Shown here piece by piece: positions 6,737 to 60,709 of a stretch of 64,000 nt of DNA. The notes below the pieces were generated by a model. The model searched no databases, was not told the DNA's origin, and saw nothing but the letters and a program-made list of their open reading frames with translations. Numbering within the stretch: position 1 is the stretch's first letter; each line of letters starts with the position of its first letter. Position numbers and translations under genes: made by a program. Origin of the DNA: Methanocella sp. (GTDB lineage: Archaea > Thermoproteota > Bathyarchaeia > Bathyarchaeales > Bathycorpusculaceae); assembly GCA_050261115.1 (NCBI GenBank), contig JBLNCY010000057.1:10999-74998 (forward strand), given 5' to 3'.

Positions 6737-6776
6737 AGTTATATATAAGGGAGGGGGGTCCCTGTGAGAGCAACAG
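6737..6776 (+). repeat. Dispersed intergenic element, copy A (short form)
   Basis: AGTTATATATAAGGGAGGGGGGTCCCTGTGAGAGCAACAG matches the core shared with five other copies. Confidence 0.85.
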
Positions 6777-6849
6777 GCTCCCCCGACTGCTTGCAAAACT
6801 AAAATGAACCAAATCGATAGACCTTCATGTTCAGCCCCCTCTCCACTGT

Positions 6850-6881
6850 CATCGAATGTTGTTTTGTCGATGCTTTAAATA
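6850..6881 (+). promoter_or_regulatory. Inverted repeat abutting the TATA box of the PolB2 cassette
   Basis: CATCGA-N11-TCGATG (6850-6872) followed by TTTAAATA (6874-6881). Confidence 0.5.
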
Positions 6882-6929
6882 ACAAAAATCAACGTAACCG
6901 TTGCCTCAACCACAAAAGAGAGGAAAACC

Positions 6930-7667
6930 GTGCAGAAACTCATTGTTAAACCATCAACCCCTCAGCTGACATCCCAACCGACGTTTTCACTAAACATGCC
7001 CCAAGCAGATGAACTCTTTCCCGGATTTCTACCCGGCGACTTCGCAGTCATACACGGCTCACCCGCCATAAACACCCTAACTTCACTGCTCTGTGTACGC
7101 GCTCAGCTACCTATGCAACTTGGCGGCTTAGCAAGTAATGTAGTCTTCATCGACGGCGGAATCACCTTTAGACTCTACCGCATCGCCAAATTAGCCCAGC
7201 TTCATGGACTCAACGCAGAAGAGGTACTGCAAAGAATCTTTATCTCTCGGGCATTCACCGCCTACCAGTTAACCTCGCTGGTAATGGAGAAACTAGAAGA
7301 AACCGTAAAAACCTGCCACGCTAAAGTCGCCATAATCTCAGACGTCGCTGGCTTCTTCTTAGACACCAATATAGCCGCAGAGGAAGCACAGAAAATCTAC
7401 AGCCAACTCATCTGCTACCTTGCAGACTTTGCTCGCAAACACCAAATCGTCGTAGTAGCCACCTATCTGCCCTACGAAAACAGCAAACGCAACATGACCC
7501 TCCAGCAGATAACCACCCAAAACGCGGGAATCGTCCTGTGCTTCACCAAAACCCCGAATGGCAAACAGCTATCCCTAGAAAAACACCCGACCTATACTCT
7601 GGGAACTACAAAATTACCTACAAGAACCATAACTTTAACTGACTTTTTAGGTGACAAATCTGGGTAA
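6930..7667 (+). CDS. Inactive RadA/RecA-like protein of the PolB2 cassette
   Basis: RecA-fold motifs VVFIDGG, I.ISRAFTAYQL and IISD retained; Walker A degenerate (HGSPAINTL, no GKT). Confidence 0.82.
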   Translation: MQKLIVKPSTPQLTSQPTFSLNMPQADELFPGFLPGDFAVIHGSPAINTLTSLLCVRAQLPMQLGGLASNVVFIDGGITFRLYRIAKLAQLHGLNAEEVLQRIFISRAFTAYQLTSLVMEKLEETVKTCHAKVAIISDVAGFFLDTNIAAEEAQKIYSQLICYLADFARKHQIVVVATYLPYENSKRNMTLQQITTQNAGIVLCFTKTPNGKQLSLEKHPTYTLGTTKLPTRTITLTDFLGDKSG

Positions 7668-7935
7668 AACAGTCGAATCCTACCGTATGGCAGTCGAAGA
7701 TGAAATTCGCCGCTGGAACGGTTTTGCTAAGGCTCTACGCAAAGAGGACCGGGAAGCCTTCGACGCATTGATGGATGCATGCCGCAGCTATGCGTCTGCC
7801 GCGAGCAACGCAACCAAACCCATACTCTTTGAGCCAATGGTTATGTCGATACTGCTTTCCCAGCAGATACGCATCCAACGATTAGCAAAGGAAGTCGAAG
7901 ACCTTAAAGCCAAACAGCCAGCCTCCACCCAGTAG
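7651..7935 (+). CDS. Small helical PolB2-associated protein (arCOG07300-like)
   Basis: GKTVESYR...W.GF..AL.KEDREAFD.L...R.YA pattern of the small protein usually encoded next to polB2; probable start CTG 7660. Confidence 0.75.
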   Translation: MTNLGKTVESYRMAVEDEIRRWNGFAKALRKEDREAFDALMDACRSYASAASNATKPILFEPMVMSILLSQQIRIQRLAKEVEDLKAKQPASTQ

Positions 7936-11449: not shown

Positions 11450-11530
11450 AGCGCACCCTCCAAAGAATAATCGTGTCTGAAGCTATAAAACCTTTAACTA
11501 GCAAGTTCGCTTATTTTAGATTGATCGGGT

Positions 11531-13078: not shown

Positions 13079-13090
13079 GACACGCAAACG

Positions 13091-13456: not shown

Positions 13457-13605
13457 AATTTTTCACCATTTATTTACCGAGTGGCTGGTTTGATATTGCT
13501 TTGTTGGTGTATGGCTACAGTAACTGTGCACCAGCTTCTGCGGTTACCGCTTTAAGAAGAAAAGAAACGGAACCTACTTGTTGCCTGTTCCCTTAGAGAT
13601 GGAGG

Positions 13606-23853: not shown

Positions 23854-23862
23854 GGTTAATCC

Positions 23863-29130: not shown

Positions 29131-29171
29131 AGTTATATATAAAGGGAGGGGGGTCCTTGGCAAAGCAAGAG
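29131..29171 (+). repeat. Dispersed intergenic element, copy B (short form)
   Basis: AGTTATATATAAAGGGAGGGGGGTCCTTGGCAAAGCAAGAG, ending 16 nt from the aRF1 stop codon. Confidence 0.85.
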
Positions 29172-29187
29172 CGTCCAGTGAATCTTT

Positions 29188-30456
29188 TTACTGTATCTTA
29201 AAGCGGAGGAAAGCAGCGATACCGCCAAACGCGTTAAGCAGCATCTGTCCCTCCTCTGTCTCAGTTGATATGACTTCCACCTCAGCGTTAGTCAGCTGCG
29301 ACAAATCCGCGATGTCATCCACAATCTCTTTTTTGTCAACGATTGTATATGAGGGCGCTTTACATCCACCGCAGGGTTTTGTGCTAAGTCCCTGTTCGAA
29401 AGCCTGCATGTCTTTGCCCTTAACTGTGTGCTGCTCCTCAAAGTTGCACGCGCCACATCTGATGGTGACCCGATACAAGTCAAGCTCTTCAGAGAGCAAC
29501 ACGGTGCGTACGGCGCCGCTGTTCATGTATCGGCGTACCTCATTTTCGCCATAAGTTATGAAGCCGCTGTCATGGCCGACTTCATAGAGGAATTTCTGCA
29601 TAAGCTGCTTCTCCTCTATATAGCGGACTTTTTTCATGATTTCAGGCGCTTTGTCAACAACCTCTTTAACGCCCTGCTCTTCCACATAGGCAGTGTCCAC
29701 TACATCAAGGATCTTGTTTTGCAGTTGATAATTTAGAAATGCGCCCTTCTGGAAATCATACTTTGTCGGGCCCGGACCACCCAGAATGATGCCCTTTAGG
29801 TTCTCCATAGGCAAAAAGACGTCGTTAGCGTGACCCGCTACACGGGTAAAATACTCGGTAAGCTGCATTTCACGTAAACGCTCATAACGCCTCGCTGACT
29901 GACCACCCGCCCGTGTTTTGCCACCTACACCGCTATGCATCTGCATAACAATGTTTAGATGCTTACCCTGCAACGTAGCAATAGTGGCGTTGCTTGCATC
30001 CACAAGTAATATACCGTAGGCTTCTTTCTCGCGAAGCATCTCTTGCAGGTGCTCAGTATGGAAGCGGCTGTCACATCGATAAAGAAAAATCCTGATAGGC
30101 TCAGGCGGAATAATAACATAGGATTCCATACGTTCCGTTCCGGGTCCACCGCCGGGCTGCGGCAGGGCGCCAGTGAAGATTACGATGCCGTGTTCACCGG
30201 GGTCTTTGAAGAGTTTGAGTTTCTGTTGCGCCTTAACGATGGCGTCAAGAACGTTTTTGCGGGTGACGTTGGATTTAATGTTGCTTGCAGTACCATACTC
30301 GTTTCGAAGAAGGTTAAGGGCGTCGCTGATCTGCTTGTCAGGTGGCACATAGATGGTGATGAGTTCAGTATGGCTGCCTTCTTTGGCGGCTAATGCGTTG
30401 ATGGTTTTTCTTAACCTGAATAGCTCAAGTGAGCTTCTTTTCTCTGTGGTACTCAA
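29188..30456 (-). CDS. prf1: Peptide chain release factor aRF1
   Basis: TASNIKS, LYRCDSRF, GGQSARR, GPGPTK, YGENEV and the zinc-ribbon insert. Confidence 0.97.
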   Translation of the reverse strand: MSTTEKRSSLELFRLRKTINALAAKEGSHTELITIYVPPDKQISDALNLLRNEYGTASNIKSNVTRKNVLDAIVKAQQKLKLFKDPGEHGIVIFTGALPQPGGGPGTERMESYVIIPPEPIRIFLYRCDSRFHTEHLQEMLREKEAYGILLVDASNATIATLQGKHLNIVMQMHSGVGGKTRAGGQSARRYERLREMQLTEYFTRVAGHANDVFLPMENLKGIILGGPGPTKYDFQKGAFLNYQLQNKILDVVDTAYVEEQGVKEVVDKAPEIMKKVRYIEEKQLMQKFLYEVGHDSGFITYGENEVRRYMNSGAVRTVLLSEELDLYRVTIRCGACNFEEQHTVKGKDMQAFEQGLSTKPCGGCKAPSYTIVDKKEIVDDIADLSQLTNAEVEVISTETEEGQMLLNAFGGIAAFLRFKIQ

Positions 30457-30542
30457 AGCGTCTTCACTGAAAGATGTTATAATTCAATACTCTACGTTAA
30501 GATGAGGAAAATAAAAGTTCCTACTCCAAGAAAGGAGGCGGG

Positions 30543-31562
30543 TTATGCTTTTGGTGCTTTAGCTGGCTTGTCAGCTTTGGGTGCAGGAGGGTCGGGTGGT
30601 AATCCGAGTGCTTCTTTGAGGTAGGCCTTGAATGGGCCGAGCTTGCCGCCATAGTTGCCTGCCGATATCTTGAGGATACCAGGACACATAAGTGATGCTT
30701 GGACGCCGACCGCCATAGCTTTCTTGACTGCGTCAAGGGTTAAGCCGTTAATGACGATTTCAAGCACACTTGTACAGCCCTCGGGGACAATGCTGTCAGG
30801 TACAATGGTTCGTAGGGTTGGGCAGTAAGTGTGGTTGGTGGAGGCTTTAAGCTTGTATTTCATGGAGCCAGCCTTGCTACCTGATCGGCACACGCCGCCT
30901 GGAAACGGCAAGATAACATCTGGAACTTGCGCGTGAATTGCATCTACTGCGGCTTCAGCTGCTGCAAGACACTCCTGGGGGGTCTTTGCAAATATCATAT
31001 AGTTGCCGCCTGCTACTGCTTCGGTGGCGCCAAAGCCGTCTTCAACAAAAAAGTTGCCTTCCATCACGGGTATCTTCCAGACTTTACGTCCCCCAATCAT
31101 GGCTTTACCTTGGAAGCCGTCGCCGAAGTAGCGGAGGCTGCTGCCGATAAGTAGCACACGTTTGCCTAAAAGTCCGTTGAAGGCTGCTGTGGTTGGGCAA
31201 GTCATGGTGCATTGACCGATGCGGCCCATTAGTGAGTGTTTGAGTTCAAAGCGGTCCTTGTTGTAAATTTGAATTAGGATGCCGGGTCGTTTGTCTGGGG
31301 TTTCACTGGCTGGAACGGTGCGTTCGATGGCTGCTTCAGCGGAAGCGGCGATGACGCTTGTGGCGTAGCCTGTTGTTATGGATGCAGCAGTCTGTGCCCA
31401 TTTCTCGTTAGCTGCAGTGATGAGTACACGAGCTGCCCACAGCGGAAACATCTCTGCAAAGGTATCCTCAACCTTCACAACGCCATGAGGAGTATTCACT
31501 AGGTACATCTTTTCTTTTTCGTCATAACCTTGAATTTCCAGCTTGCTACTGTTCGATGACAT
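30543..31562 (-). CDS. ftr: Formylmethanofuran-tetrahydromethanopterin formyltransferase
   Basis: VEDTFAEMF, RVLITA, TPD.RPG, RIGQC.MTCPTTA, GDGFQ, PGGVCRSGSK, SAGNYGGKLG. Confidence 0.93.
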   Translation of the reverse strand: MSSNSSKLEIQGYDEKEKMYLVNTPHGVVKVEDTFAEMFPLWAARVLITAANEKWAQTAASITTGYATSVIAASAEAAIERTVPASETPDKRPGILIQIYNKDRFELKHSLMGRIGQCTMTCPTTAAFNGLLGKRVLLIGSSLRYFGDGFQGKAMIGGRKVWKIPVMEGNFFVEDGFGATEAVAGGNYMIFAKTPQECLAAAEAAVDAIHAQVPDVILPFPGGVCRSGSKAGSMKYKLKASTNHTYCPTLRTIVPDSIVPEGCTSVLEIVINGLTLDAVKKAMAVGVQASLMCPGILKISAGNYGGKLGPFKAYLKEALGLPPDPPAPKADKPAKAPKA

Positions 31563-31742
31563 GAACGAGACCTTGCCTCTTGAGTGGGCTTTTGTATAAT
31601 TTAAGAGTTTTCATGTTTTTTCTGGTTTCAAGCTGTGTATTTTTATGGTATTAAACGTTGGTTTTCTTGGCATATTTAGAGTTTAGCAGGGAACGCCGAG
31701 TGCTTGCTGTTAGATTAGGGGTGTTGGATGTTGGATAGTGGT

Positions 31743-31799
31743 CTGTTGCTTTGCCGACCTACCCCCTCCCTTATATATAGAACCAACCACGGGTTCAAC
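31743..31799 (-). repeat. Dispersed intergenic element, copy C (full form)
   Basis: Minus strand GTTGAACCCGTGGTTGGTTCTATATATAAGGGAGGGGGTAGGTCGGCAAAGCAACAG. Confidence 0.9.
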
Positions 31800-31971
31800 T
31801 TAGCCTTGAATGCGCATGTGATTTTGCGGCTATGGGTTGGCTTCTCATTTTTTATGTCCTTCTGTAGTCACTATCCTCTACATAGCAGACTCTAGGCAAA
31901 CACCGCAAAGGGCTATGAAGCGCTTAATTTTTTAAGTCAGACAACCATATCAGAACCGCGAAGAGAGAGAT

Positions 31972-32379
31972 ATGCCGATTAAGTATTTTCCCGCCCCCGA
32001 AATCAAAAAACAAGTTGACCAGTTAGTGCAGGAATGCGAATTCCATCATGTGGTGCCACAGTTCGTTTTCTGTGTTCGAAGCAAAGGCAGCAAAGCAAAA
32101 CGCACCATAGCCCGCATTCATGGACTGGGCAAAATCTGGCAGGGCGTACTTAACCTCCCACCCAGCTACACCATCGAGGTTATTAGCGAAATCTATGACA
32201 GGATGTCTCCCGAGGATAAGGAGCGCACGTTGATTCATGAGTTGATGCATATCCCTGGCGGCTTTAGCGGCGGCTTTAGGCCTCACAAGGGCTATGTTGA
32301 GAGGAAGAATGTTGAGGCAGTGTATAAGAAACTGCAGAGTGACCGCGCTGCGAGGCGGCAGAAGCGACTTTTTTCCTGA
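31972..32379 (+). CDS. Putative zincin metallopeptidase (COG4900/phage-metallopeptidase-like)
   Basis: RSKGS..R.IARI.G, Y.IEVISE.YD, LIHELMHIP...G..RPH. Confidence 0.85.
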   Translation: MPIKYFPAPEIKKQVDQLVQECEFHHVVPQFVFCVRSKGSKAKRTIARIHGLGKIWQGVLNLPPSYTIEVISEIYDRMSPEDKERTLIHELMHIPGGFSGGFRPHKGYVERKNVEAVYKKLQSDRAARRQKRLFS

Positions 32380-32468
32380 ATAAAACGTGGCGGCATCGGT
32401 TAAAGTTTTTAAGCTTCTTTGCCGCGGTTGTGTTTATTGCAGCTTTAACAAAAGCCATATAAGCCTTA

Positions 32469-34181
32469 ATGGGCAAAGTCACAAGAAAACTTTGCCGTAG
32501 AACGGGGTTAAACAGTTCAATGAAGCATGTTATGAAAAGTCTAAAGCACAACGGCGTATACGTTCCACCCTATGACCTAAAGGGGTTTAGTGTTAAAATC
32601 GCTGGACAACCAGTTAAATTAACACCTAAAAGCGAGCCTATGGCAGTAGCCTGGGTACGCCGAGTCCTTTCTACCACTATACCCCCACCCGATAACGTCT
32701 TCACCAAGAACTTTATGCAGGAATTTTTGCAACAACTACAAAAAGAAAACCCCAAAGCCACATTCCTCCAAGAGTTTACCCTCAAATACTTATCAAACAT
32801 AGATAACCCAACCCTCAACAACGGCGGCGTCCAAGCCCTCGACATCGACTTCACCGACATAAAAGCATACATTCTTAACGAAAAGGCCAAAAAAGAAGCC
32901 ATGACCAAAGAGGAGAAAAAGAAACTGGCTGAGGAACGCAAAGTCATACGCCAGGAGTTCCGCGACAAATACGGCTATGCCGAAGTGGACGGTCAACGCC
33001 TCGAAATCGCCAACTGGACCGCTGAACCCAGCTGCCTCTTTGCGGGACGCGGTGACCACCCCCAGCGCGGCAGATGGAAAGAAGGCCCAAGTGAAGAAGA
33101 CATCACCCTCAACCTCTCCCCCGATGCCCCCAAACCCGAAGGCTGGAAGGGCAAAATCATCTGGGAACCCGAAAAGATGTATGTTGCCAAATGGGTTGAC
33201 AAACTAACTGGCAAAGTCAAGTACGTCTGGTTCAGTGACACTGCGTTTCTTAAGCAGAACCGAGAGAAGGAAAAATTCAAAAAAGCTGAGGACCTGGGCA
33301 AACACATAGACGCCGTAGAGAAACATATTCTCAAAAACCTCTCCGCAAAAGACATCATGCGTCGGAAAACAGCAACTGTTGCCTGGTTGATTCTTGCAGT
33401 GAACATGAGGGTTGGCGATGAGAAGGACCCAGATGAAGCTGATACGGTGGGCGCCATTACCCTGCGTGATGAGCACATCAGCATTCAAGGTGACCAGGTT
33501 ACCTTTGACTTCTTGGGTAAGGACAGCGTTAGATGGGTAAAAACCGTTCAAGCCCCGCCTCAAGTCATCAAGAACCTCACTGAGTTCAAGCAGGATAAAA
33601 AAGTCCAGTACCTCTTTGAGGGCATCGACAGCAAAACTGTCAGCCGATTCTTATCTGAAAAAGTACCCAAACTCACCGCAAAAGTGTTCCGTACCTGGAA
33701 ATGCACTAAAACAGTCAAAGAAGAACTCGAAAAGAGCGGCGTAACCAAAAACGATCCCGACTACAAAAAGAACTTTGCAGCCAAAATGGCTAACCTCAAA
33801 GTAGCAGAAGTCGCTAACCACAAACGCAAAATCCCACCCACCTATGACCAGCGCATAGCGGAGAAGGAGCGGAAACTAAAGGAACTGGAAGAACAGCTCA
33901 AAGTTAAGAAAAAAGAGGGCAAAAAAATTGAGTCGCTGGAAGGCCGCATTGAGAAAGCCAAACTTGATTTGGAATTGGCTAAGCTTACCCGCGAATACAA
34001 CTTGGGCACCTCGCTTAAGAGCTACATTGACCCACGGGCATACGTTAAGTGGGCTAAGAAAGTCAAGTTTGACGTTGAAAAGTTCTATCCCAAGACCCTG
34101 CGCAGCAAATTCAGTTGGGCGCTACAGGCAGGCAGCAAGAAGAGCACGGATGCCTGCGACTCCGAGTGTATAACTCCATGA
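32469..34181 (+). CDS. top1: DNA topoisomerase IB (eukaryote-like)
   Basis: LKHNG, EP..LFAGRG.HP.RG, catalytic R (MRVGDEKD), K (FLGKDS), R (AKVFRT), H (NHKR), Y (SYIDPR); likely start 32520 or 32532. Confidence 0.96.
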   Translation: MGKVTRKLCRRTGLNSSMKHVMKSLKHNGVYVPPYDLKGFSVKIAGQPVKLTPKSEPMAVAWVRRVLSTTIPPPDNVFTKNFMQEFLQQLQKENPKATFLQEFTLKYLSNIDNPTLNNGGVQALDIDFTDIKAYILNEKAKKEAMTKEEKKKLAEERKVIRQEFRDKYGYAEVDGQRLEIANWTAEPSCLFAGRGDHPQRGRWKEGPSEEDITLNLSPDAPKPEGWKGKIIWEPEKMYVAKWVDKLTGKVKYVWFSDTAFLKQNREKEKFKKAEDLGKHIDAVEKHILKNLSAKDIMRRKTATVAWLILAVNMRVGDEKDPDEADTVGAITLRDEHISIQGDQVTFDFLGKDSVRWVKTVQAPPQVIKNLTEFKQDKKVQYLFEGIDSKTVSRFLSEKVPKLTAKVFRTWKCTKTVKEELEKSGVTKNDPDYKKNFAAKMANLKVAEVANHKRKIPPTYDQRIAEKERKLKELEEQLKVKKKEGKKIESLEGRIEKAKLDLELAKLTREYNLGTSLKSYIDPRAYVKWAKKVKFDVEKFYPKTLRSKFSWALQAGSKKSTDACDSECITP

Positions 34182-34459
34182 GCGTCGTCGAAACCAAAGA
34201 CGGCGCCAACCTCACAGTTTTTGTAAAACCCAACTCCCCAAAGTTCAAGATAGAATTTGACGGCACTGAAGTCATTGTTTACTCCACGGAGGAACCCGTC
34301 AAGGGCAAGGTGAATAAGGAGATTATGAAGGAGATGGGGAAGCTTTTGGGGTTGCGTGTGGAGATTGTTTCTGGGTTGACTTCTAAGCAGAAAGTGCTGC
34401 TCTTTAGGGGCATAAGCAAAGCTGAGGTTGAAGCACTGTTAGGTAGCTTACAGGGTTGA
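34178..34459 (+). CDS. DUF167/YggU family protein
   Basis: VFVKPNS, PVKGKVNKE, IVSGLTS..K; ATGA overlap with the top1 stop. Confidence 0.88.
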   Translation: MSVVETKDGANLTVFVKPNSPKFKIEFDGTEVIVYSTEEPVKGKVNKEIMKEMGKLLGLRVEIVSGLTSKQKVLLFRGISKAEVEALLGSLQG

Positions 34460-34525
34460 AGTGGTTGGTGGATTTGGAAAAACCATAAATTCTAAGACAC
34501 CCTAACGCTTCCTTGGTGGGTACAG

Positions 34526-34960
34526 ATGAAAGCAGACCAAGCAACCCAAAAGGGAGTTATACAGGCTTTTAAAGAAATGTTTGAGGCGTACAAAAAGAAA
34601 GACACCCAAGGCGTCCTTAACTGCTGGGCAAGCGACCCCGATATAGTAATGATTGGGTCAGGTAAGGATGAGAAAAGTGTTGGTGTAGAAAAATTTGTTG
34701 AGAGTCTAACAAGGGATTGGGAGCAAGCCAACATCACCGCCATCGACGTGAAGGATTTCAGCGTCTCAGTCTCGGGGAATGTCGCTTGGCTTAGTTCAGA
34801 TTTAACCTTTAACTATACAGTAAAGGAAAAAGCCCTGCAGTTGGCTGGGCGCTTAACGGGAGTTATGGAGAAACGCAACGGAAAATGGCTCTGGATGCAG
34901 ATGCATTACTCTGTTCCTAACGTTAATCAGAAACGCGGCCAATCGTGGCCCAAAAAGTAA
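34526..34960 (+). CDS. SnoaL/NTF2-like protein
   Basis: D..MIG.G, VS.SG.VAW, R.T.V.EKR.GKW...Q.H.S. Confidence 0.85.
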   Translation: MKADQATQKGVIQAFKEMFEAYKKKDTQGVLNCWASDPDIVMIGSGKDEKSVGVEKFVESLTRDWEQANITAIDVKDFSVSVSGNVAWLSSDLTFNYTVKEKALQLAGRLTGVMEKRNGKWLWMQMHYSVPNVNQKRGQSWPKK

Positions 34961-35127
34961 GCTGCAAAAACTGTGGACATAACTGGGCTAGTTCAATGGA
35001 GAAGTACTAGCGCCTTTTCACCATTTCTCGACGGTTATTCTATCATTATTCTTTTGTGCTTTGCATGGTTTGATTTTAGAATTAAAATAAAGCGTTTATA
35101 TCCCCCAAGGCTAAGCGTAACTTTGAG

Positions 35128-36726
35128 ATGAAGGTTATGAGCAGCAGCGAAGAAAACCGAATCATTCCAAGAACCATGTCTACCCAGCATCCAGACAACG
35201 CAGTTACACCAGACTGGAGCCGAGACGAAGTAATCGGGGGCAACGCAGAGGTCTTGGAAGCCTTCTATGCATACAGCAGTCTAGGCTGCCAGGAAGTCAT
35301 GTGGGACTCTGAAGGCAAAGACGCTGACACCCGCGTGGTTCGAAAGCTGCTCCAGAAGTACTGGGATTACTTTGCAAGCCACACAATCGGCGAAGATCTC
35401 TTCCTAACATATCGTGTTCCCAACCCAAAGATTGAAGGTGCCGAGAAGAAGATCATTGTTGAGACTCTACAGAATATCCCCGTGGCCTATGATGTGGCGA
35501 CGTTGGTTTACAAGCGGGAGGTTTCGCCCCTCTTTGAAGTCATCTTGCCCATGACTACCGACGCTAAAGAAATCATCATGCTATACAACTATTACAAAAA
35601 AGCCATAGTTGAAGCAGAAGACGCCAAACTCTACGAGCAAACCACCGTCAAAGACTGGATGGGTCACTTTATGCCCAAAGCCATCAAAGTAATCCCGCTT
35701 GTGGAAGACTTTGACAGCATCCTAAACGTAGACCAAATCATTGCGCCATACATCAAGGCAGTGAAGCCCAAACAGCAACGCATCTTCGTCGCCCGCTCAG
35801 ACCCCGCCCTAAACTACGGTCATATCTGCGCGGTGCTGCTCTCAAAAATCGCATTAAGCAAACTCAAAAAACTCGAAAAACAGACTGAACACACAGCGAT
35901 ACATCCAATCCTTGGGGTGGGCTCAAAACCCTTCCGAGGCCACCTCTCGCCAGATAACATCGACAACTTCTTACAAGAATACCAGGGCCTATCCACAGTC
36001 ACCATCCAATCCGCCTTCAGATACGATTACCCCGCAGACCAAGTCAAAGAAGGCATCCAAACCCTCAACCAACGCCTACCCAACGGGGTCCCCGAATTCA
36101 TCGACCCCGAAGAAGAATCCGTTCTCCGCGGCATTCTCTCAAAGTGCAGAAAAGAATACGAACACCAAATCGAAATCATGGCCCCCTTCATCAACGCAGT
36201 CGCAGCCTACGTTCCAGCAAGACGCACAAGAAAACTCCACATCGGACTCTTCGGCTACAGCCGATGCGTCGCAGGGGTATGCCTGCCAAGGGCCATCAGC
36301 TTTGCCAGCGCACTCTACAGCGTCGGTATCCCACCCGAATTCATCGGCCTTAAAGCACTAAACCAGCTAAGCGAACAGGAATGGCAAACCCTCACCAAGA
36401 ACTACATAAAAATGCAGCATGACTTCAAAGTAGTCGGCGAATATGTCTCCTTAAACAACATAAACATGCTCACCGAGTTGAGTCAAATCACAGCTAAACG
36501 GTCAGGCATGAGTGAAGACCAACTAAAAGACGCCCTTGCAAGCTTAATCGAGGACCTAAACGCCGCCGAGCAGAAGCTAAACATCAAGCTGGGCCCCCGA
36601 GGATTCTCCCAGAGACGACACGAGAACTTTTCAAACAACTTTTTGCTCTCATTCCTGCAGAAGCAAGATGCAGAGGCAAAGGCGGCGCTGGTGGAATCAG
36701 CCAAGCTTAGAAGATGCCTAGGCTAA
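35128..36726 (+). CDS. ppcA: Archaeal-type phosphoenolpyruvate carboxylase
   Basis: IPRTMSTQHPDN, MWD.EGK, IPLVED, ARSDPALNYG, G.GS.PFRG, GLFGYSR, PRAI.F. Confidence 0.96.
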   Translation: MKVMSSSEENRIIPRTMSTQHPDNAVTPDWSRDEVIGGNAEVLEAFYAYSSLGCQEVMWDSEGKDADTRVVRKLLQKYWDYFASHTIGEDLFLTYRVPNPKIEGAEKKIIVETLQNIPVAYDVATLVYKREVSPLFEVILPMTTDAKEIIMLYNYYKKAIVEAEDAKLYEQTTVKDWMGHFMPKAIKVIPLVEDFDSILNVDQIIAPYIKAVKPKQQRIFVARSDPALNYGHICAVLLSKIALSKLKKLEKQTEHTAIHPILGVGSKPFRGHLSPDNIDNFLQEYQGLSTVTIQSAFRYDYPADQVKEGIQTLNQRLPNGVPEFIDPEEESVLRGILSKCRKEYEHQIEIMAPFINAVAAYVPARRTRKLHIGLFGYSRCVAGVCLPRAISFASALYSVGIPPEFIGLKALNQLSEQEWQTLTKNYIKMQHDFKVVGEYVSLNNINMLTELSQITAKRSGMSEDQLKDALASLIEDLNAAEQKLNIKLGPRGFSQRRHENFSNNFLLSFLQKQDAEAKAALVESAKLRRCLG

Positions 36727-36776
36727 CCCGCCAACCCACTTCTTGTTTCCAAACTCGTCTGCGGGTTTTGTGCGCT

Positions 36777-37859
36777 TTAGCCGAGTAGTTTTGCAAGGCT
36801 CGGAACTTTCTTTAACACAAACACAATCCCCGCAGATAGGGTAAACACGATTACCGCAAAAATGGGCACATCAATCAGGACTATGTCGGTTATCGAGTTC
36901 ACCCAGAAACCAAACACTCCATTGGAAACCAACGTGACTAGTATTATCATGTGTATTAGGTAGATGGGGAGCGTGTTTTGGCTTACCCACTGTATGATTC
37001 CACCGAGGATTTTGCGGTTGCCCAGGCTGTTGAAGTCTAGCGAGATTAACGCAAAAAACAGAGCGGCGCTTGCCAGTATGATGGTGGGGCTGACGTAGCT
37101 ATGGAAGAACCCCGTGTACTGCTCACCCAAGATACTCGTAAGCAGCCAGCTACTTGCGACGGTTCCCAGCAAGCCGCCTAGCATTAGAAGGAGCGCTCTG
37201 AGTTTTGGCATGCTGGTTTGCAGCAGATATAGGCCTAAGAGATAGTAACCGACCCAGTCTATGAGAATAAATGGGTAGGGATAATAGTTGAGTTGGGGCA
37301 AAAACACATGGATGGCAGGCGTTAGGGTGGTGCCGGCGAACCATATAATCAGCAGGTACAGGTAGAGTTTGCGGTCTAAATGCCTAACCAGCACACGGAG
37401 CACAGGAGTTAAAGCATACAGCCCCATGAGCAGGTAGAGGTACCAGAGGTGAGTGTATGCACCGCTTGCAAGTCCCTGCACCATACTCATGAGCGTGAGG
37501 GGCTGTCCCAGCACCCCAAAAGTCCATGCAAAGTAGATTACTGTCCAAAAGATGAAGGGCAACCCAATACGGTCTAGCCGCTTCTTGTAGAATACCTTAA
37601 GCGGCTCCTCTTCTCGATTGGGGTCAAGCAGCAGCACACCGGTTAACATGACAAATAGGGGGACCCCTAAAAGCCCTGCAGCGGCATAGGTGGTGGTTGA
37701 TAGCCAATTAACAACATCCATACCTGTAACTGCGGGGTTCAAGAAGCGGTAAGGAAACCCAGAGCTATGAAGCAGGATAACCATGAAAATAGCGATGAAG
37801 CGGATTACATCAATGGTATAGTTAGCGGCAACTGGTTTCTCCCCCAGACTTCCCACCAC
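36777..37859 (-). CDS. Acyltransferase family 3 membrane protein
   Basis: D..RFIAIFMVILLH, VPLF.M..G.LLL, HLWYLY..GLY, TL.IYL.H. Confidence 0.9.
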   Translation of the reverse strand: MVGSLGEKPVAANYTIDVIRFIAIFMVILLHSSGFPYRFLNPAVTGMDVVNWLSTTTYAAAGLLGVPLFVMLTGVLLLDPNREEEPLKVFYKKRLDRIGLPFIFWTVIYFAWTFGVLGQPLTLMSMVQGLASGAYTHLWYLYLLMGLYALTPVLRVLVRHLDRKLYLYLLIIWFAGTTLTPAIHVFLPQLNYYPYPFILIDWVGYYLLGLYLLQTSMPKLRALLLMLGGLLGTVASSWLLTSILGEQYTGFFHSYVSPTIILASAALFFALISLDFNSLGNRKILGGIIQWVSQNTLPIYLIHMIILVTLVSNGVFGFWVNSITDIVLIDVPIFAVIVFTLSAGIVFVLKKVPSLAKLLG

Positions 37860-40198: not shown

Positions 40199-40448
40199 CA
40201 GGCAGTCCCTAAATTAGTATAAGTCGTGTGCTAGTTGCGGGCTAAACACGCCCTAAAAGGTTTGCAACAGTAATCAATAGAATCCTGCTGGCAGCTGTTT
40301 TTAGTTTTTATCCGTTCATGTTTATTTGCCTGCTTTTCTTTTGACAGAAAGGTGCTAAATGAACCGCTACCACAGTTTTAGTATAAGAACAGCAACGATA
40401 CATCTGGTAGTGTTTAGGTAGGTTCTGCAGGGTGGTTTCCAAACCAGA

Positions 40449-40505
40449 GTTCAACCTGTGGTTGGTTCTATATATAAGGGAGGGGGTCCCTCGGCAAAGC
40501 AACAG
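40449..40505 (+). repeat. Dispersed intergenic element, copy D (full form)
   Basis: GTTCAACCTGTGGTTGGTTCTATATATAAGGGAGGGGGTCCCTCGGCAAAGCAACAG. Confidence 0.9.
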
Positions 40506-40685
40506 CAAAAATGCATAAGAACATAGACAGCATCTGGCGAGTGCCCGATAGAGGAGCGGCATAGTAGGGAGAACTGCTGCTACACCCTATACGTTTATGG
40601 GGATGTATATGCCTGAAAGGTGTTGTATTATGCGCATAAGCCTTATATTTTCAAAATCAACCTTCTCTGACTGAAGGACAAACGT

Positions 40686-55627: not shown

Positions 55628-55973
55628 CTGCTGATATGGGCGGTTTGGATATAAGAATTAACCCTCAAACTGCCCTAGCACAGATACCTTGACAAAAGTT
55701 AGGAGAGAGATGCAAAAAAATTCATTGAGTAAACAAATAATCCCTCCCTTTTGCTTCGAACGGTATGGGTAGATTCAGCAAAACTTAGGTGCTTTAGCGG
55801 CTGTTATCCCATCCTCTATGGCTCTACAGCAAGAGACTTAAAACCGTTAACTTGCCTCTGCCTTGAGAATTAACACTCTAAGGCTCGAAACACATCACTA
55901 AAGATGAAAGATAGGCCTCATTCATTTTTATGTGGCGTTCAGGTTTAGTTAGGTCTTGCACTTACAAGCCATT

Positions 55974-56027
55974 GTTGAACCCTTGGTTGATTCTATATAT
56001 AAGGGGGGGTCTATGGCAGAGCAATAG
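55974..56027 (+). repeat. Dispersed intergenic element, copy E (full form)
   Basis: GTTGAACCCTTGGTTGATTCTATATATAAGGGGGGGTCTATGGCAGAGCAATAG. Confidence 0.88.
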
Positions 56028-56277
56028 ACGCTGTTTATTTGTTGGGTGCCGGACTAATTGCAGAACCAAAAACAACAAACCGATTAATTCCCAGCTTTCA
56101 CACTGGGTCCCTAGCAGGCGTTGGGTTGCTATCAAACCTGCCATTTTGTACCTAAAAATGTGCTAAACCGCCATTCCAGCGGCAGCTTTTGGGTTTTCCT
56201 TTTATAGGAAGGTTTTTAGTATAGTTATTGTATGAGTCTGTGAAAAAGTACAGAGTCTATAATGAGGTTAACATATT

Positions 56278-57006
56278 ATGTCCGTATTTGCAGCACCTGG
56301 AGCATATGACCGTGCAATAACTGTATTCTCGCCTGATGGCCGACTATTTCAAGTCGAATACGCGATGGAGCTCGTAAATCGCGGGGCCACCATACTTGGC
56401 ATCCAAACCTCAGAAGGATTAGTTCTAGGATCAGAAGAAAACATTGAAGTCCTCGAAGAAGCAGGCTACAGCTGGAAAATCTTCCGCGTCGACGATCACA
56501 TCGGCGCAGCCATCGTCGGCTTATCAAGCGACGCCAGAATACTAATCGATCAAGCACGCATCTATGCTCAAAGTAATAAACTAACATACGACGAACCCAT
56601 CGACGTAGAAGTCGTAACCAAACGCATCTGCGACATCCAACAAATGTACACCCAACACGCAGGTGTCCGACCCTTCGGCGTATCCATAATCTTCGGCGGA
56701 GTCGACAAAACCGGTCCACGCGTCTTCGGAACCCACCCAAGCGGCACATACCGCGGCTACAAAGCCACCGCCTTGGGAGCAGGACGCGAAACCGTACTAA
56801 ACATCCTAAAAGAAGAATACAAAGACGACATGACCATTGACAACACCATAAAATTAGCGGTAAAATGCCTAGTCAAAGCACTCGAAGCACGCCAGCTACC
56901 ACCCAGAATCAAAATCGCAATCATCCCAGCAGCAACAAAGAAAATGGAAATGCTAAACGACAACACAGTCGAAGGATACATCAAAGAGCTGGGCCAAAGC
57001 AAGTGA
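56278..57006 (+). CDS. psmA: Proteasome alpha subunit
   Basis: YDRAITVFSPDGRLFQVEYA, RPFGVS. Confidence 0.97.
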   Translation: MSVFAAPGAYDRAITVFSPDGRLFQVEYAMELVNRGATILGIQTSEGLVLGSEENIEVLEEAGYSWKIFRVDDHIGAAIVGLSSDARILIDQARIYAQSNKLTYDEPIDVEVVTKRICDIQQMYTQHAGVRPFGVSIIFGGVDKTGPRVFGTHPSGTYRGYKATALGAGRETVLNILKEEYKDDMTIDNTIKLAVKCLVKALEARQLPPRIKIAIIPAATKKMEMLNDNTVEGYIKELGQSK

Positions 57007-57013
57007 CAAACTG

Positions 57014-57700
57014 ATGAGCGAAAAGTTCACAGTCGCACGCTTAACCAGAGAAAACGAACACTTTGAAATCCTCGTAAAACCAGCAAAAGCGCTCTACTAC
57101 CGCAACGGCAAAATCGCAGGGATAACTGAGGTTTTAGCCGCCGACATCATTTTTTCTGACGCTAACAAGGGCACCCGAGTCTCAGAGGAGGCTATGAAAA
57201 AAGCCTTCAAAACCACAGACACCCTAAAAATCGCAGATGAAATCCTCAAAAAAGGCACCCTTCAACTCACAACTGAACAACGCAGAAAAATGGTCGAGGA
57301 CAAAAAACGGCAAGTGATTGACTTTATCGCTCGACAGGCAGTTGACCCCAAAACCAACCTGCCTCATCCGCCCATGCGCATCGAAAACGCCATGGAGCAA
57401 ATCCGTTACTCCATAGACCCATACAAGTCCGTGGAGGAGCAAGCAAAAGACATCGTTAAACTCTTACGACCTATCCTGCCGCTTAAAGTCGAGCAGGTCA
57501 AGGTTGCAGTAAAAATCCCCGCACAATACGCCTCCAGAGCCTACGGCACCGTTAAAACGTTGGGCACCATAAAACGTGAAGAATGGCGCGGCGACGGCTC
57601 TTGGTACGGCGAACTTGAATTACCCGCAGGCGCCTATGCTTCGCTTCTAAACAAGCTTGGCGACGCCACAAAGGGAAGCGGAGAAGCAAAAATAATCTAA
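57014..57700 (+). CDS. sdo1: Ribosome maturation protein Sdo1/SBDS
   Basis: FEILV.P, IFSDANKG, G..QLTTEQRR, DPKTNLPHPP.RIE.A. Confidence 0.95.
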   Translation: MSEKFTVARLTRENEHFEILVKPAKALYYRNGKIAGITEVLAADIIFSDANKGTRVSEEAMKKAFKTTDTLKIADEILKKGTLQLTTEQRRKMVEDKKRQVIDFIARQAVDPKTNLPHPPMRIENAMEQIRYSIDPYKSVEEQAKDIVKLLRPILPLKVEQVKVAVKIPAQYASRAYGTVKTLGTIKREEWRGDGSWYGELELPAGAYASLLNKLGDATKGSGEAKII

Positions 57701-57723
57701 GTAATATGAAAAATGGTGATTTT

Positions 57724-58437
57724 ATGCCAACATTCTTTGAAAAAAAACAACTCGTAACGCCCGGAGAATTACTCGCAGAAGGCGACTACTTACCTGGCGA
57801 AAACACGTATATTGAAAACGGCAAGATATTCGCCGAAAGAATTGGACTCGTAGACAGCGATAACAAAAAAGTTAACGTGGTGGCACTTAGAGCATTTTAC
57901 GTGCCAAAAGTCGGTGACATAGTAATCGGAACAGTTACTGAAGTAGGCTTCAACGGCTGGACCGTCGACATCAAATCCCCCTACACCGCCATGCTACGCG
58001 CATCCGATGTGCTTAGCAGGCCCTTTAAGCCCCAAAACGACGAGTTATCAGCAGTCCTAAACACAGGCGACCTCATCGTAGCCAAAATCGCCTCATACGA
58101 CCGCGCACACGACCCACAATTAACCGTGGGCGAGCCAGGATTGGGAAAAATTACTCGCGGCCAACTCCTCAGAGTAACCCCAACAAAGATTCCTCGTATC
58201 ATCGGACGCAAGGGCTCGATGATATCTATGATTAAGCAGGAAACCAACTGTCAAATCATCCTTGGACTCAACGGCGTCGTTCTAGTCACAGGCAAGACCC
58301 CTGAAGAGGAAGCAATAGCCATCGGCGCAATCCGCAAAATTGAAGAAGAATCCCACACAAGCGGCTTAACCGATCGCATCACACAGTTATTGAAAGAAAA
58401 GAAAACACCAGCCCAACTGGAGGAAATACAACAATGA
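57724..58437 (+). CDS. rrp4: Exosome RNA-binding subunit Rrp4
   Basis: [18 protein letters not shown] domain [16 protein letters not shown]. Confidence 0.95.
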
Positions 58438-59180
58438 ACGAAAAAACTGAAAAACTAATCGACAAGAAAGGCATCCGCGGCGACGGAAGAAAAGCGGATG
58501 AACTTCGCCCCCTAAAACTACAGGTCGGCGTACTTCCAAACGCTGATGGATCAGCATACATTGAACACGGCAAAAACAAAATCTTAGCCGCAGCATACGG
58601 CCCAAGAGAAATGCACCCCAAGCACCTCGCACAAGCAGATCGCATGGTGCTCAGATGCAGATATCACATGGCGCCCTTTAGCGTGCAAGAACGCAAATCT
58701 CCCGCACCCTCACGCAGAGAAGTTGAATTAAGCAAAGTAATCAAAGAATCCCTTGAACCAGCCCTATTCCTTGAACTCTACCCCCGCACAGGCGTCGACG
58801 TCTTTGTGGAGGTTTTACAGGCAGACGGCGGAACCCGCTGCGCAAGCATTACCGCTGCAGCTCTAGCTATTGCTGATGCGGGTGTTCCGATGCGTGATTT
58901 AGTTGTGGCATGCGCCGCAGGCAAAGTTGAGGACCAAGTCGTCTTAGACCTCTACGACGCCGAGGACAAATTAGGCTCTGCCGATGTCCCCGTTGCTTAC
59001 ATGCCTAATCTAAACGCAATCACGTTACTGCAGATGGATGGTGTTCTTTCTCCAGCTGAATTCGAGAAAGCAGTCACTATGGCTATGGATGGCTGCAAAA
59101 AGATCTACCAAATGCAGAAAGAAGCACTTAAGACCAAATATATGGCTATTAAAGAAACTGAGAAGGAGACTGAAGAGTAA
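58434..59180 (+). CDS. rrp41: Exosome subunit Rrp41
   Basis: R.DGR..DELRP, YHMAPFS..ERK, RRE.E.S, QADGGTR.A. Confidence 0.96.
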
Positions 59181-59971
59181 TGTCATCACTTGTAACTAAA
59201 GTCAAAGTAAAGCAAATCGAAGCCCTACTAGAGAAAGGCACACGTATGGATGGTAGAGGCTTACTTGATACCCGCGAAATCAAAATCGAACAAGGCCTCA
59301 TAGAGAAAGCCGAGGGCTCAGCTCGTGTGCTTTTGGGCAAAACCGAGGTGCTTGTCGGGGTTAAAGTCGAAACAGGCGAACCCTTCCCAGACACACCAAA
59401 AGAGGGCGTCATGACTGTTAACGCGGAACTTGTACCGCTTGCGTCGCCCCACTTTGAGCCAGGTCCACCTGACGAAAACAGTATTGAACTTGCTCGTGTT
59501 GTTGACCGAGGCATTAGAGAATCGCATGCTGTTGATACAGAGAAGCTGTGCATCGAGGAAGGCAAAAAAGTCTTTGTTGTGTTTGTCGATGTCTATGTCC
59601 TTAACCATGACGGCAACCTAATTGACGCTTCTGCAATCGCGGCTATGGCGGCGCTCATGAACACCAAAATGCCTAACTATGAAATCAAAGACGGCGAACT
59701 AAAGATCAAGCAAGGCTACACACCGCTACCCATGAAGAGCCACCCCGTTACAGTCACCATCGGCAAAATCAATGGTAAACTCGTTGTTGACCCTGCATTG
59801 GAAGAGGAATCCGTTATGGATTCGCGCATAACCTTTGCATCTAATGAGGACGGAAACATCTGTGCTATCCAGAAGGGTCTGTCAGGCTTTTTCTCACCGC
59901 AACAGATTTTAGATGCCTCAAAGATTGCTCTGGACAAAGCAGTCGAATTAAGAAAGAAACTAAACTGGTGA
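59180..59971 (+). CDS. rrp42: Exosome subunit Rrp42
   Basis: R.DGR, AEGSA.V.LG.T, PF.DTP, ELARVVDRGIRES, DGNL.DA. Confidence 0.96.
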   Translation: MSSLVTKVKVKQIEALLEKGTRMDGRGLLDTREIKIEQGLIEKAEGSARVLLGKTEVLVGVKVETGEPFPDTPKEGVMTVNAELVPLASPHFEPGPPDENSIELARVVDRGIRESHAVDTEKLCIEEGKKVFVVFVDVYVLNHDGNLIDASAIAAMAALMNTKMPNYEIKDGELKIKQGYTPLPMKSHPVTVTIGKINGKLVVDPALEEESVMDSRITFASNEDGNICAIQKGLSGFFSPQQILDASKIALDKAVELRKKLNW

Positions 59972-59977
59972 AAATAG

Positions 59978-60325
59978 TTGCCCAAGACAAAAAAAGTTGG
60001 TCCAACTCGAGGGTTCGGTCCTCGATACGGTTCCACTGTAAGAAAACGCTACGTCAAAGTCATAACTGAACTCAAAAAGCCACACAGATGCCCCCAATGC
60101 GGGTTTGTCCGTGTTAAACGCGAAAGCGTTGGCATCTGGGTATGCGGCAAATGCGCCTACACCTTCTCTGGCGGAGCGTACACTCCACACACGAAACTCG
60201 GCGCCGTTGCAAAACGTGCAGCTAAAGGCGGTCTAGAAGTTGAAGCGGCCCAAGCGCAGGTACCAGTAGTGGAAGCCGAAGAAGTTGAAGCCGCTGAAGA
60301 GGCAACTGAAGAAACCACCGAGTAA
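59978..60325 (+). CDS. rpl37ae: 50S ribosomal protein L37Ae with acidic C-terminal tail
   Basis: G...FGPRYG...RK, CPQC, GIW.C.KC...GGAY; Glu-rich extension. Confidence 0.95.
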   Translation: MPKTKKVGPTRGFGPRYGSTVRKRYVKVITELKKPHRCPQCGFVRVKRESVGIWVCGKCAYTFSGGAYTPHTKLGAVAKRAAKGGLEVEAAQAQVPVVEAEEVEAAEEATEETTE

Positions 60326-60379
60326 ACCTCTCTTCTTTTAACCTATTTTTATTAACTCATTCTATACTTAGGGTACGTT

Positions 60380-60637
60380 ATGTCAATTAGAACCTCAACC
60401 GCTGTCAATTTGCAGTTCACCGACGCAAAACAAATCGATATACTCCTATCCGCGTTATCTCCCGAAGCAATGGCGCCGGCGACTCGACGATCATGTGTCA
60501 CCTTGAATAGGGATGGTGTGTGTTTGAGGTTAACTGTTGAAGCCGAAGACACTGTTGCGTTAAGGGCTACTCTAAACACTTATCTGCGCTGGATAAACTC
60601 CGCCCTAAACGTCCTTGAAGCGATTAAGAAAGCTTAA
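60380..60637 (+). CDS. pcc1: KEOPS subunit Pcc1
   Basis: L.PE, L...AED..ALRA.LNTYLRWI; usual position in the exosome operon. Confidence 0.9.
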   Translation: MSIRTSTAVNLQFTDAKQIDILLSALSPEAMAPATRRSCVTLNRDGVCLRLTVEAEDTVALRATLNTYLRWINSALNVLEAIKKA

Positions 60638-60654
60638 CTGTAATGGCGAGGGTT

Positions 60655-60709
60655 CTGTTGCTCTTGCGACCTACCCTCTCCCTTATATATAACCAACCAT
60701 GGGTTTAAC
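60655..60709 (-). repeat. Dispersed intergenic element, copy F (full form)
   Basis: Minus strand GTTAAACCCATGGTTGGTTATATATAAGGGAGAGGGTAGGTCGCAAGAGCAACAG, 17 nt from the pcc1 stop. Confidence 0.9.

Follow-up and report, generated by a model that had tools for sequence, protein, structure and literature searches.

Promoter-like cassettes that face inward at the edges of gene clusters in a Bathyarchaeia genome

What kind of signal recurs, without any annotation, in six intergenic spacers of one stretch of archaeal chromosome? The window, by which we mean the whole 64,000-nucleotide stretch analysed, comes from the 2.15-Mb genome of an uncultured member of the Bathyarchaeia, and the original prediction had placed in it six copies of a short intergenic element. 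That count and those positions are confirmed. With up to three mismatches allowed, the 18-mer TATATATAAGGGAGGGGG is found six times (Table 1) against 0.04 matches expected by chance, no shuffle gave six, and a sequence-only model run over the window with its filters off returned exactly the same six, the next best match scoring 5.6 bits. Our alignment agrees with the consensus first drawn and with the presence of indels, which are 1-3 nt long and break reading frames, so that the element is non-coding as proposed. A genome-wide motif scan had also been called for; run as a profile search (nhmmer), it finds about 120 copies, in two subfamilies, scattered over at least 40 contigs and on average about 18 kb apart. 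The six window copies are true members of this family of promoter-like DNA cassettes.

Table 1. Cassette copies in the window and the two gene clusters that they bracket.
Feature	Coordinates	Strand	18-mer match	Support or content
Type B copy; in order, ~70 nt of the long upstream module, GGTTGCTGAGT, TATATATA, AGGGAGGGGGG, GTGAGAGCAACAG	6669..6782	+	6740+	nhmmer (C57:17667-17780), 18-mer match, model scan
Degenerate core-only copy (TATATATAAAGGGAGGGGGGTCCTTGGCAAAGCAAGAG)	29134..29171	+	29134+	18-mer match, model scan
Type A copy, top score in the genome	31733..31824	-	31779-	18-mer match, profile search, model scan
Type A copy	40428..40513	+	40469+	18-mer match, profile search, model scan
Type A copy, shortened G-run	55965..56032	+	55994+	18-mer match, profile search, model scan
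Type A copy	60645..60759	-	60691-	18-mer match, profile search, model scan
Bracketed unit 1	29134..31794			eRF1 and formylmethanofuran-H4MPT formyltransferase (FTR) between inward-facing copies
Bracketed unit 2	55979..60704			Proteasome alpha, SBDS, Rrp4, Rrp41, Rrp42, L37ae and Pcc1 between inward-facing copies

All types of the cassette share a core of a perfect TATA box, a G-run and GGCARAGCAACAG, and they differ on the TATA-upstream side, where alternative modules of about 30 nt (type A, containing the 9-bp palindrome GGTTSAACC) or about 165 nt (type B) are found. The TATA octamer TATATATA is near-invariant and of the TTTAWATA type, and between species it changes only to the TATA-competent variants TTTATATA, TATAAATA and TTTAAATA, with the G-run kept. 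The TATA box is symmetric, with the G-rich block directly downstream, and in one back-to-back dimer of the host genome (C22:33664-33691) two cassettes have a single TATA box in common. Conservation stops sharply at ..GCAACAGA, and the next ~20-40 nt are C+A-rich; the last conserved CA, within GCAACAG, lies about 24-30 nt past the TATA box, a distance that would suit a transcription start 22-27 nt downstream of it, and bears out the earlier observation that the conserved part ends at a CA some 30 nt downstream. The region from -12 to -1 is GC-rich and thus unfavourable for melting. Invariant positions adjoin free ones in the alignment, and this position-specific conservation is a poor fit to a uniformly decaying repeat.

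How the copies lie relative to genes is less regular than the window suggests. Within the window they occupy only divergent (four) or convergent (two) spacers, as had been claimed, but genome-wide half of them are in tandem spacers. The 16-17 nt originally given between element and stop codon likewise holds for the two window cases when measured from the GCAACAG end (16 nt for eRF1, 17 nt for Pcc1) but is no fixed rule in the genome: of 57 copies directed at the 3' end of a gene, 26 come within 38 nt of its stop codon, at distances of 2 to 38 nt, which rules out a fixed spacing. Relative to the next gene, 45 genome copies are sense and 60 antisense.

The cassettes do sit at the edges of ordinary gene clusters, pointing inward and often as facing pairs. 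It is the GCAACAG end that faces the bordered cluster, and partners are often 1-10 kb apart. Among pairs closer than 10 kb, 28 are facing and three are back-to-back, a result reached in none of 20,000 orientation shuffles. Facing pairs have a median spacing of 5.4 kb, back-to-back pairs one of 18.7 kb. Congener G064 shows the same trend (six facing, one back-to-back). The bracketed clusters, which include eRF1 with FTR, the proteasome/exosome operon and Rad50-Mre11, have genes on a single strand in 10 of 28 units and on both strands in the other 18, so the bracket is not an operon feature. There is no partner inside 10 kb for 64 of the 120 copies, and partners resemble each other no more than randomly chosen copies do (p = 0.16). 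The inward-facing pairing is new here and is the chief point that the earlier reading missed, along with the two subfamilies, the scale of the family and its patchy spread through the genus with some common positions. We know of no described repeat family with this layout.

Both bracketed units of the window follow the rule. The degenerate copy forms the left border of unit 1 and faces the 3' end of eRF1, while the top-scoring copy forms its right border, facing FTR from ~180 nt upstream, past FTR's own conserved promoter; the TATA starts of the two are 2,645 nt apart. Unit 2 spans 4,697 nt, from a left border 284 nt upstream of proteasome-alpha, facing the operon, to a right border after the Pcc1 stop, facing back into it. 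The remaining copies stand singly: the type B copy faces a RadA-like/PolB2 cluster (start 6930) and has no partner in the window, and the unpaired type A copy at 40428..40513 lies at a synteny breakpoint and faces the aminotransferase cluster from ~150 nt upstream of the conserved promoter that the aminotransferase gene itself has.

The original prediction took the element for a lineage-specific signal, but related copies also occur in several other Bathyarchaeia, and the element is therefore not limited to one lineage. Among 61 congeners, seven genomes carry 7, 11, 28, 33, 45, 55 and at least 91 copies and the rest have 0-2. Some positions are common between species and most differ; about one fifth of the G064 copies are at positions common with the host genome. 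Weakly similar copies follow the eRF1 stop in the same place and orientation in four congeners, and further common sites are found after Pcc1, where G005 has a degenerate copy in the same place as the window's, upstream of FTR and near TFB. Some copies keep both site and orientation between species whose neutral spacers no longer align. Copies also stay attached to their cluster when neighbours or gene order change between species. The left border copy moves with the PadR-arcadin block to another location in G050, and the PadR-arcadin unit is placed between blocks that are adjacent to each other in four congeners; when a 14-kb stretch is compared with G050, all three of its copies fall at three of the four breakpoints. 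Tandem copies are present in other species, and one 5.3-kb contig (G064:C23) ends in 153-nt inverted arms that are 99% identical and contain the element. No pair of copies exceeds 95% identity over a stretch longer than 60 nt, so the family has had no recent burst. Copy 31779 is also where many short contigs end, probably because those assemblies break at shared repeat words.

The build of the cassette invites comparison with promoters, and an original suggestion was a dedicated, possibly antisense, promoter class. This remains the best single reading. The cassette is, however, BRE-less, and its neighbours keep promoters of their own. It lacks the purine-rich BRE of host promoters (AA three to four nt upstream), as first noted, and against a promoter matrix learned from 591 upstream regions of the host genome its median score is 0.9 bits forward and 0.3 reverse, below shuffled sequence (3.7) and real promoters (6.0). 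The neighbouring genes' own conserved canonical promoters stand between cassette and start codon; those of the aminotransferase and FTR genes are separate from it and are conserved in relatives where no element is seen at that place, and we reject the cassette as the promoter of adjacent genes. Nor is it the promoter of stable RNAs, as the element is absent at promoter distance from all 41 tRNA genes. TFB genes number 2-6 per genome without tracking element load, so that an extra, dedicated TFB paralogue reading the G-run is not indicated.

The reading that we tentatively favour, at somewhat below even likelihood, is a cassette of promoter type, bound by TBP/TFB, that fires or stalls in the direction of the bordered cluster. 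The element would be a polar, protein-binding cis-module of promoter type in which the G-rich block directly after the TATA box lies where TFB and RNA polymerase would contact DNA. TBP and TFB would assemble on the cassette, and transcription would start or stall toward the cluster. At a 5' border the product would be a distal sense transcript crossing the promoter of the gene itself, and at a 3' border an antisense transcript; with sense output at one end and antisense at the other, the cassette would act as a cluster-border promoter rather than as that of a single gene. On this reading individual copies are old and maintained by selection on the core, and the family has probably spread and been renewed by duplication or recombination, not by a transposase. 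Promoter action alone does not explain the pairwise facing.

Three described promoter systems come close to such a cassette. Halovirus HF2 carries 58-bp intergenic repeats, its class I repeats, whose promoter activity is proven by experiment and whose conserved blocks extend from BRE to initiator, some of them active both ways (Russ, Pfeiffer and Dyall-Smith 2021; PMC8707807). Both families consist of repeated intergenic archaeal cassettes of ~58 bp, with blocks from the TATA-upstream side to the start site and positions conserved among relatives. The HF2 repeats, however, number seven in a single virus, and every one precedes a gene that it drives, with a recognisable BRE and proven activity, whereas the present cassette has about 120 copies on a chromosome, is BRE-less, takes either gene orientation, forms facing pairs and has a putative activity. 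Archaeal TATA boxes can fire in both directions, and the bidirectional BRE-TATA-BRE promoters of Pyrococcus furiosus (PMC6640164) resemble the cassette in their symmetric TATA box and conserved flanks on both sides, but they are ordinary gene promoters with purine-rich BREs on each side, where the TATA box of the cassette is flanked by a G-run and, on the opposite side, by either a palindrome or a long module. Putative mobile promoters (PMC3575422) are likewise closely similar promoter-like sequences beside unrelated genes, within and between genomes; they are defined upstream of genes presumed to be driven by them, whereas more than half of the cassettes face 3' ends, and their neighbours keep their own promoters and the copies obey a pairing rule.

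Mobile-element explanations were weighed on the structure of the ends and on the surrounding genes. As originally stated, terminal inverted repeats are absent (the ends, TTCAAG.. and ..GCAACAGA, are unrelated), and so are target-site duplications: there is no direct repeat in the flanks of 42 type A copies, and the flanks of whole units match no better than shuffled sequence and show no duplications either. The claim that no transposase lies nearby stands within the scope examined, namely TnpB-like proteins, the only transposase family searched, of which none passed the cut-off in the 95%-complete draft genome, and the annotated bracketed units, which contain no transposase. An IS200/IS605-type element is rejected on the lack of TnpB, and a cargo transposon with inverted ends on the lack of target duplications, the unlike partners and the housekeeping cargo. 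As an integrase landing pad or att site the element fares no better: the five tyrosine recombinase genes are not at copies, the bracketing copies are inverted rather than direct, and the bracketed genes are housekeeping genes. The cassette has a dyad and a G-string, as ORB elements do, with a spacing that differs from theirs, and its copies are dispersed rather than forming clustered inverted copies with an AT-rich unwinding region and orc1/cdc6. In type B, where a coding sequence or small peptide was considered, 1-2 nt indels between copies break every frame and exclude coding, and the genes upstream of type B copies are mutually unrelated.

Among broader alternatives, a selfish, non-autonomous mosaic repeat of the MITE, REP/BIME or BOX kind is unlikely in our estimate. 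An enzyme acting in trans would mobilise it, or recombination would copy it; cluster borders would be the only places where it is tolerated, and the TATA and G-run core would be the mobilising enzyme's recognition site. Such a repeat would account for a large number of intergenic copies in either orientation to genes, for a mosaic of one common core with alternative A and B modules, for the patchy load among the congeners with a minority of positions shared with G064, and for tandem copies in other species. But neither element nor unit has the termini or duplications expected of it, there is no TnpB and no transposase in the annotated units, there has been no recent burst, conservation is position-specific rather than uniform, copies are kept in place and orientation beyond the point where neutral spacers align, and random insertion would not give the inward-facing rule. 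REP/BIME, pneumococcal BOX and Neisseria Correia elements have hairpin palindromes or terminal inverted repeats and often a known partner (RAYT, IHF, gyrase). Compared by these features, the cassette is similarly short, non-coding, multi-copy and modular, sits at gene ends and is tied to rearrangement points, but it has no inverted termini and no stable palindromic hairpin, and an archaeal TATA box stands at its centre. An RNA-level role is less probable still, and very much so. The C-rich strand would put an anti-Shine-Dalgarno-like ACCCCCUCCCUU into the preceding gene's 3' untranslated region, or, in a variant, the cassette would encode a small RNA, with the type B sequence as its transcript. 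The 26 copies close behind stop codons fit this, and downstream of eRF1 and Pcc1 the first oligo-T runs come only past the element, which probably makes it part of those two mRNAs. A role as a substitute terminator gains no support: oligo-T runs are fewer at genes trailed by a copy (23% against 48%), but the element itself takes up most of the stretch that was scanned. The REP-like 3' RNA element of the original prediction is nevertheless not supported, because neither strand shows a fold or covariation: RNAalifold gives neither base pairs nor a consensus structure for the cores of types A and B or for the 140-nt type B arm, both strands fold with the same energy as shuffled sequence (z from -0.9 to +0.1), and nothing in the whole window reaches the Rfam 15 gathering score. 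The distance to stop codons is variable, and almost half of the copies are upstream of genes, where the C-rich strand would be outside the mRNA.

The protein-binding chromosomal signal also proposed originally stays a live rival. Here a dedicated DNA-binding protein would read the core of a polar architectural or recombination site, and two sites would cooperate only when facing; the pair would delimit a chromosomal domain, as loop anchor, insulator or supercoiling barrier, or crossover at the copies would invert the bracketed cluster or move it elsewhere. We regard this as possible, and the strongest of the alternatives, without thinking it likely. It would fit the pairing rule at the 1-10 kb scale and its echo in G064, the both-strand gene content of most units, the coincidence of copies with the G050 breakpoints, the placement of the PadR-arcadin unit and the inverted arms of G064:C23. 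That coincidence with breakpoints may, however, only reflect tolerance of both at cluster borders; partners are not especially alike, the tyrosine recombinase genes are unlinked to copies, no candidate binding protein is named, and more than half of the copies stand without a near partner. Actively flipping units are rejected, since both units of the window have a single orientation throughout 23 strain contigs. Polar, convergently oriented boundary sites are known from the CTCF sites of loop anchors and the Ter sites of replication fork traps, and by analogy the cassettes might similarly bracket a chromosome stretch with an effect that depends on facing; they would do so at 1-10 kb and in another domain of life, and loops, barriers or a binding protein here would be conjecture. 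That facing pairs are polar boundary elements delimiting small domains around gene clusters, as loop anchors, as supercoiling or transcription barriers or as sites of a dedicated recombination system by which whole housekeeping clusters are inverted or moved, is improbable in our estimate.

Bathyarchaeia are, to our knowledge, abundant and largely uncultured, with enrichment cultures only, and we know of no experimental result on the signals that govern their transcription or on how their chromosomes are organised. The host species occurs in many public sequencing runs. A cassette with a perfect TATA box and no BRE, in about 120 copies, offers a testable handle on how the basal machinery chooses its sites and direction. 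Inward pairing around housekeeping clusters is a rule of the kind that marks functional boundaries or recombination substrates in other systems. Should the pairing be functional, archaea would have in it their first domain border defined by sequence, and should the facing-pair boundary reading be true, it would reveal a layer of chromosome organisation that is encoded in sequence, depends on orientation and is not known from archaea. Even if the copies are only tolerated selfish promoters, they would caution annotators against taking these TATA boxes for gene promoters and would still explain why gene order in the genus breaks where it does.

The repeated promoter-like element points inward in pairs, a new finding that brackets gene clusters between facing copies. 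The orientation of neighbouring copies alternates along contigs, and among pairs within 10 kb in the window's own genome, 28 are facing, 3 back-to-back and 9 same-strand, an excess of facing pairs that was reached in 0 of 20,000 orientation shuffles; with the draft of this genome 95% complete, partners of some copies may be missing. Facing pairs lie a median of 5.4 kb apart, the 28 ranging from 1.0 to 9.6 kb, and back-to-back neighbours a median of 18.7 kb, with a minimum of 8.7 kb bar one dimer with a single common TATA box. A like bias is seen in the congener G064 (6 facing vs 1 back-to-back). Partner copies are no more similar to each other than random copies are. Because only 10 of the 28 bracketed units have single-strand gene content, the bracket is not simply the promoter and terminator of one operon. 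Beyond the two units in the window, the cargo consists of ordinary chromosomal genes: Rad50-Mre11; EF-1beta with Cdc48; aquaporin; M42 peptidase, archease and adenylate kinase; PadR, arcadin and DNA glycosylase; and tRNA-splicing endonuclease with GlyRS.

Coordinates of element copies, bracketed units and associated features (own genome unless stated)
Feature	Location	Details
Copy	window 6740(+)	
Copy	window 29134(+)	
Copy	window 31779(-)	
Copy	window 40469(+)	
Copy	window 55994(+)	
Copy	window 60691(-)	
Unit	window, between 29134(+) and 31779(-)	eRF1 and FTR (formylmethanofuran-H4MPT formyltransferase)
Unit	window, between 55994(+) and 60691(-)	proteasome alpha, exosome genes, Pcc1 operon
FTR canonical promoter	window 31600-31640	GAAAACTC TTAAATTATA; conserved across species
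Aminotransferase canonical promoter	window 40640-40680	CATAAGCC TTATATTTT; conserved across species
Segment inverted in congener G050	window 31919-36726	one breakpoint at copy 31779; other (36726-36945) without a copy
Back-to-back dimer, outside the window	G000:C22:33664-33691	one TATA box in common (CCCCCTCCCTTATATATAAGGGAGGGGG); junction of two adjoining bracketed units
PadR / arcadin-1 / methyladenine-glycosylase unit	C22:33674-37389 (stretch L160, 7175-10890)	
Contig with inverted arms, congener G064	G064:C23 (stretch L164, 1-5340)	5.3 kb

In the window, the core TATATATAAGGGAGGGGG has six matches against 0.04 expected by chance, a number reached by no shuffle, and a covariance model (sequence only, filters off) returns the six copies and no other match above 6 bits. 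These are the six copies of the original prediction, and their alignment reproduces its consensus and shows small indels between copies. All six lie in spacers, as had been claimed, and the copies facing a gene's 3' end are indeed 16 nt from the eRF1 stop codon and 17 nt from that of Pcc1. The source of the sequence is archaeal. The window also encodes proteasome alpha, two family-B polymerases, a eukaryote-type topoisomerase IB and FTR; gene calls are longest-ORF calls, which makes distances to start codons approximate. With no more than 2 mismatches allowed, the own genome (2.15 Mb, 66 contigs) has 70 copies, 35 per strand, and 0 matches to a reversed control sequence; nhmmer finds about 120. 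With the forward strand defined as TATA, G-run, GCAACAG, the core common to all copies reads GGTTG..TC, TATATATA, AGGGAGGGGGT, a variable 3-5 nt and T(C/G)(G/T)GCA(A/G)AGCAACAGA. Upstream of the TATA box, type A (42 copies, ~70 nt in all) has CAAG, the palindrome GGTTSAACC and an edge that is often rich in T, and type B (~27 copies) has a module of ~165 nt in which conserved blocks alternate with free stretches. Conservation is position-specific, zero-information columns adjoining near-invariant ones, and breaks off sharply after GCAACAGA, at the CA dinucleotide originally described; the next ~20-40 nt are C+A-rich. No two copies in the own genome are >95% identical over >60 nt, which indicates that the family there is old, and the core looks to be kept by selection rather than by recent copying.

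Several identities can be set aside. The element is not coding sequence, as every frame is broken by indels and type B copies have unrelated genes as neighbours. Neither is it a classical MITE: its ends are unrelated and there are no target duplications at element or unit level, in line with the earlier claims on terminal inverted repeats and target sites. The claim that no transposase is nearby holds for the annotated bracketed units, those outside the window included, and no TnpB-like gene was found. Where tested, the element fails the defining features of MITEs, REPs, ORBs and att sites, and a match to a described MITE/REP/ORB family, which had been named as a refutation, was not seen. It is not the promoter of adjacent genes, as the aminotransferase and FTR each have a canonical promoter of their own between element and start codon, conserved in congeners that showed no element there. 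No tRNA gene of the own genome has the element ahead of it at promoter distance, and 45 copies are sense and 60 antisense to the next gene. The genome-wide promoter motif is AA, three free bases and TTWWA, mostly 35-50 nt before ATG; against a matrix from 591 upstream regions the element does worse than shuffled sequence in either direction, as it lacks the BRE, an absence that the original prediction had reported.

Copies keep company with the cluster they face, and outer neighbours vary between species. The PadR-arcadin unit lies between M42/archease/Adk and DUF1643 blocks that are directly adjacent in four congeners (G014, G010, G075 and G050), and so this unit has been relocated; in G050 the PadR-arcadin block sits elsewhere, accompanied by its left copy. 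The G064 contig (Orc1/Cdc6, pyruvoyl arginine decarboxylase, NucS, methyltransferase, two HTH proteins) ends in 153-nt inverted arms, which are 99% identical to each other and contain the element; the contig may be an invertible or multi-context segment. Among 23 strain-level contigs for each window unit, none was found to carry the unit in flipped form. The segment inverted relative to FTR in G050 runs from a metallopeptidase and topoisomerase IB to PEP carboxylase. Logan contigs bearing eRF1 (L165-L174), which come from ~20 independent public runs, begin within copy 31779, ~228 nt upstream of FTR, and none exceeds 10 kb; rather than a structural variant, this most likely reflects assemblies breaking at shared repeat words. 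The association of copies with breakpoints may arise partly because both are tolerated only between clusters.

The best-supported mechanism, which we hold tentatively, is a promoter-type cassette that initiates transcription, or keeps a pre-initiation complex waiting, in the direction of the adjoining cluster. The element has a perfect TATA box, whose function is kept by its cross-species variants, the space from this box to the expected start site is filled exactly by the conserved block, and the CA end is followed by an unstructured stretch. Copies at 5' borders would fire in sense, from far upstream, and those at 3' borders antisense. The G-run on one side would be the obvious candidate for a direction signal, with the downstream TFIIB recognition element of eukaryotes as an analogue. 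With a symmetric TATA box, it is the flanks that must set the direction (PMC6640164). This reading is in line with the dedicated (antisense) promoter class originally proposed. Promoter action alone does not account for the lack of a BRE or for a melting region rich in GC, and least of all for the pairing rule, hence our caution.

A dedicated polar binding site that works through facing pairs, serving domain borders or recombination, is a rather unlikely alternative, and we consider it improbable that the element is a selfish mosaic repeat tolerated at cluster borders only. An RNA-level element is very improbable. The element is not a structured RNA: neither strand has a consensus fold or covariation, which counts against the REP-like 3' RNA element initially suggested, shuffled sequence has the same folding energy, and Rfam gives no match. 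The literature searched has no description of such an element in Bathyarchaeia; among the nearest described things are bacterial mosaic repeats, 'putative mobile promoters' (PMC3575422) and the repeated 58-bp promoter cassettes of halovirus HF2, an experimentally proven archaeal precedent for the promoter-type cassette (PMC8707807).

Public records with the window's 18-mer core are nearly all Bathyarchaeia MAGs. By the core model, load is patchy across 61 genomes of the genus, with at least 91 copies in the own genome, 55, 45, 33, 28, 11 and 7 in others, and none in most congeners, the closest relative by DNA identity included. TFB genes number three in the own genome (C43, C47, C51) and two to six in congeners; the C43 gene and its G064 and G075 counterparts have a copy 1-1.5 kb away. 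Kept across species are a TATA-competent octamer, the G-run and, ~10 nt further on, ..AGAGCA..; the upstream flank differs by species, and two species have tandem units ~55 nt apart. In G005, between Pcc1 and an HTH gene (G005:C39, L045), a 1.2-kb gene-bearing insert directly follows a degenerate copy, this genome being otherwise 'element-free'. After the eRF1 stop, weakly similar copies in the same orientation occur in four congeners whose neutral spacer no longer aligns, a possible relic lies upstream of FTR in G075, and about one fifth of G064 copies are matched in place by an own-genome copy. Positions are partly common across species, so that copies at some sites have been retained for long, and those at most sites turn over.
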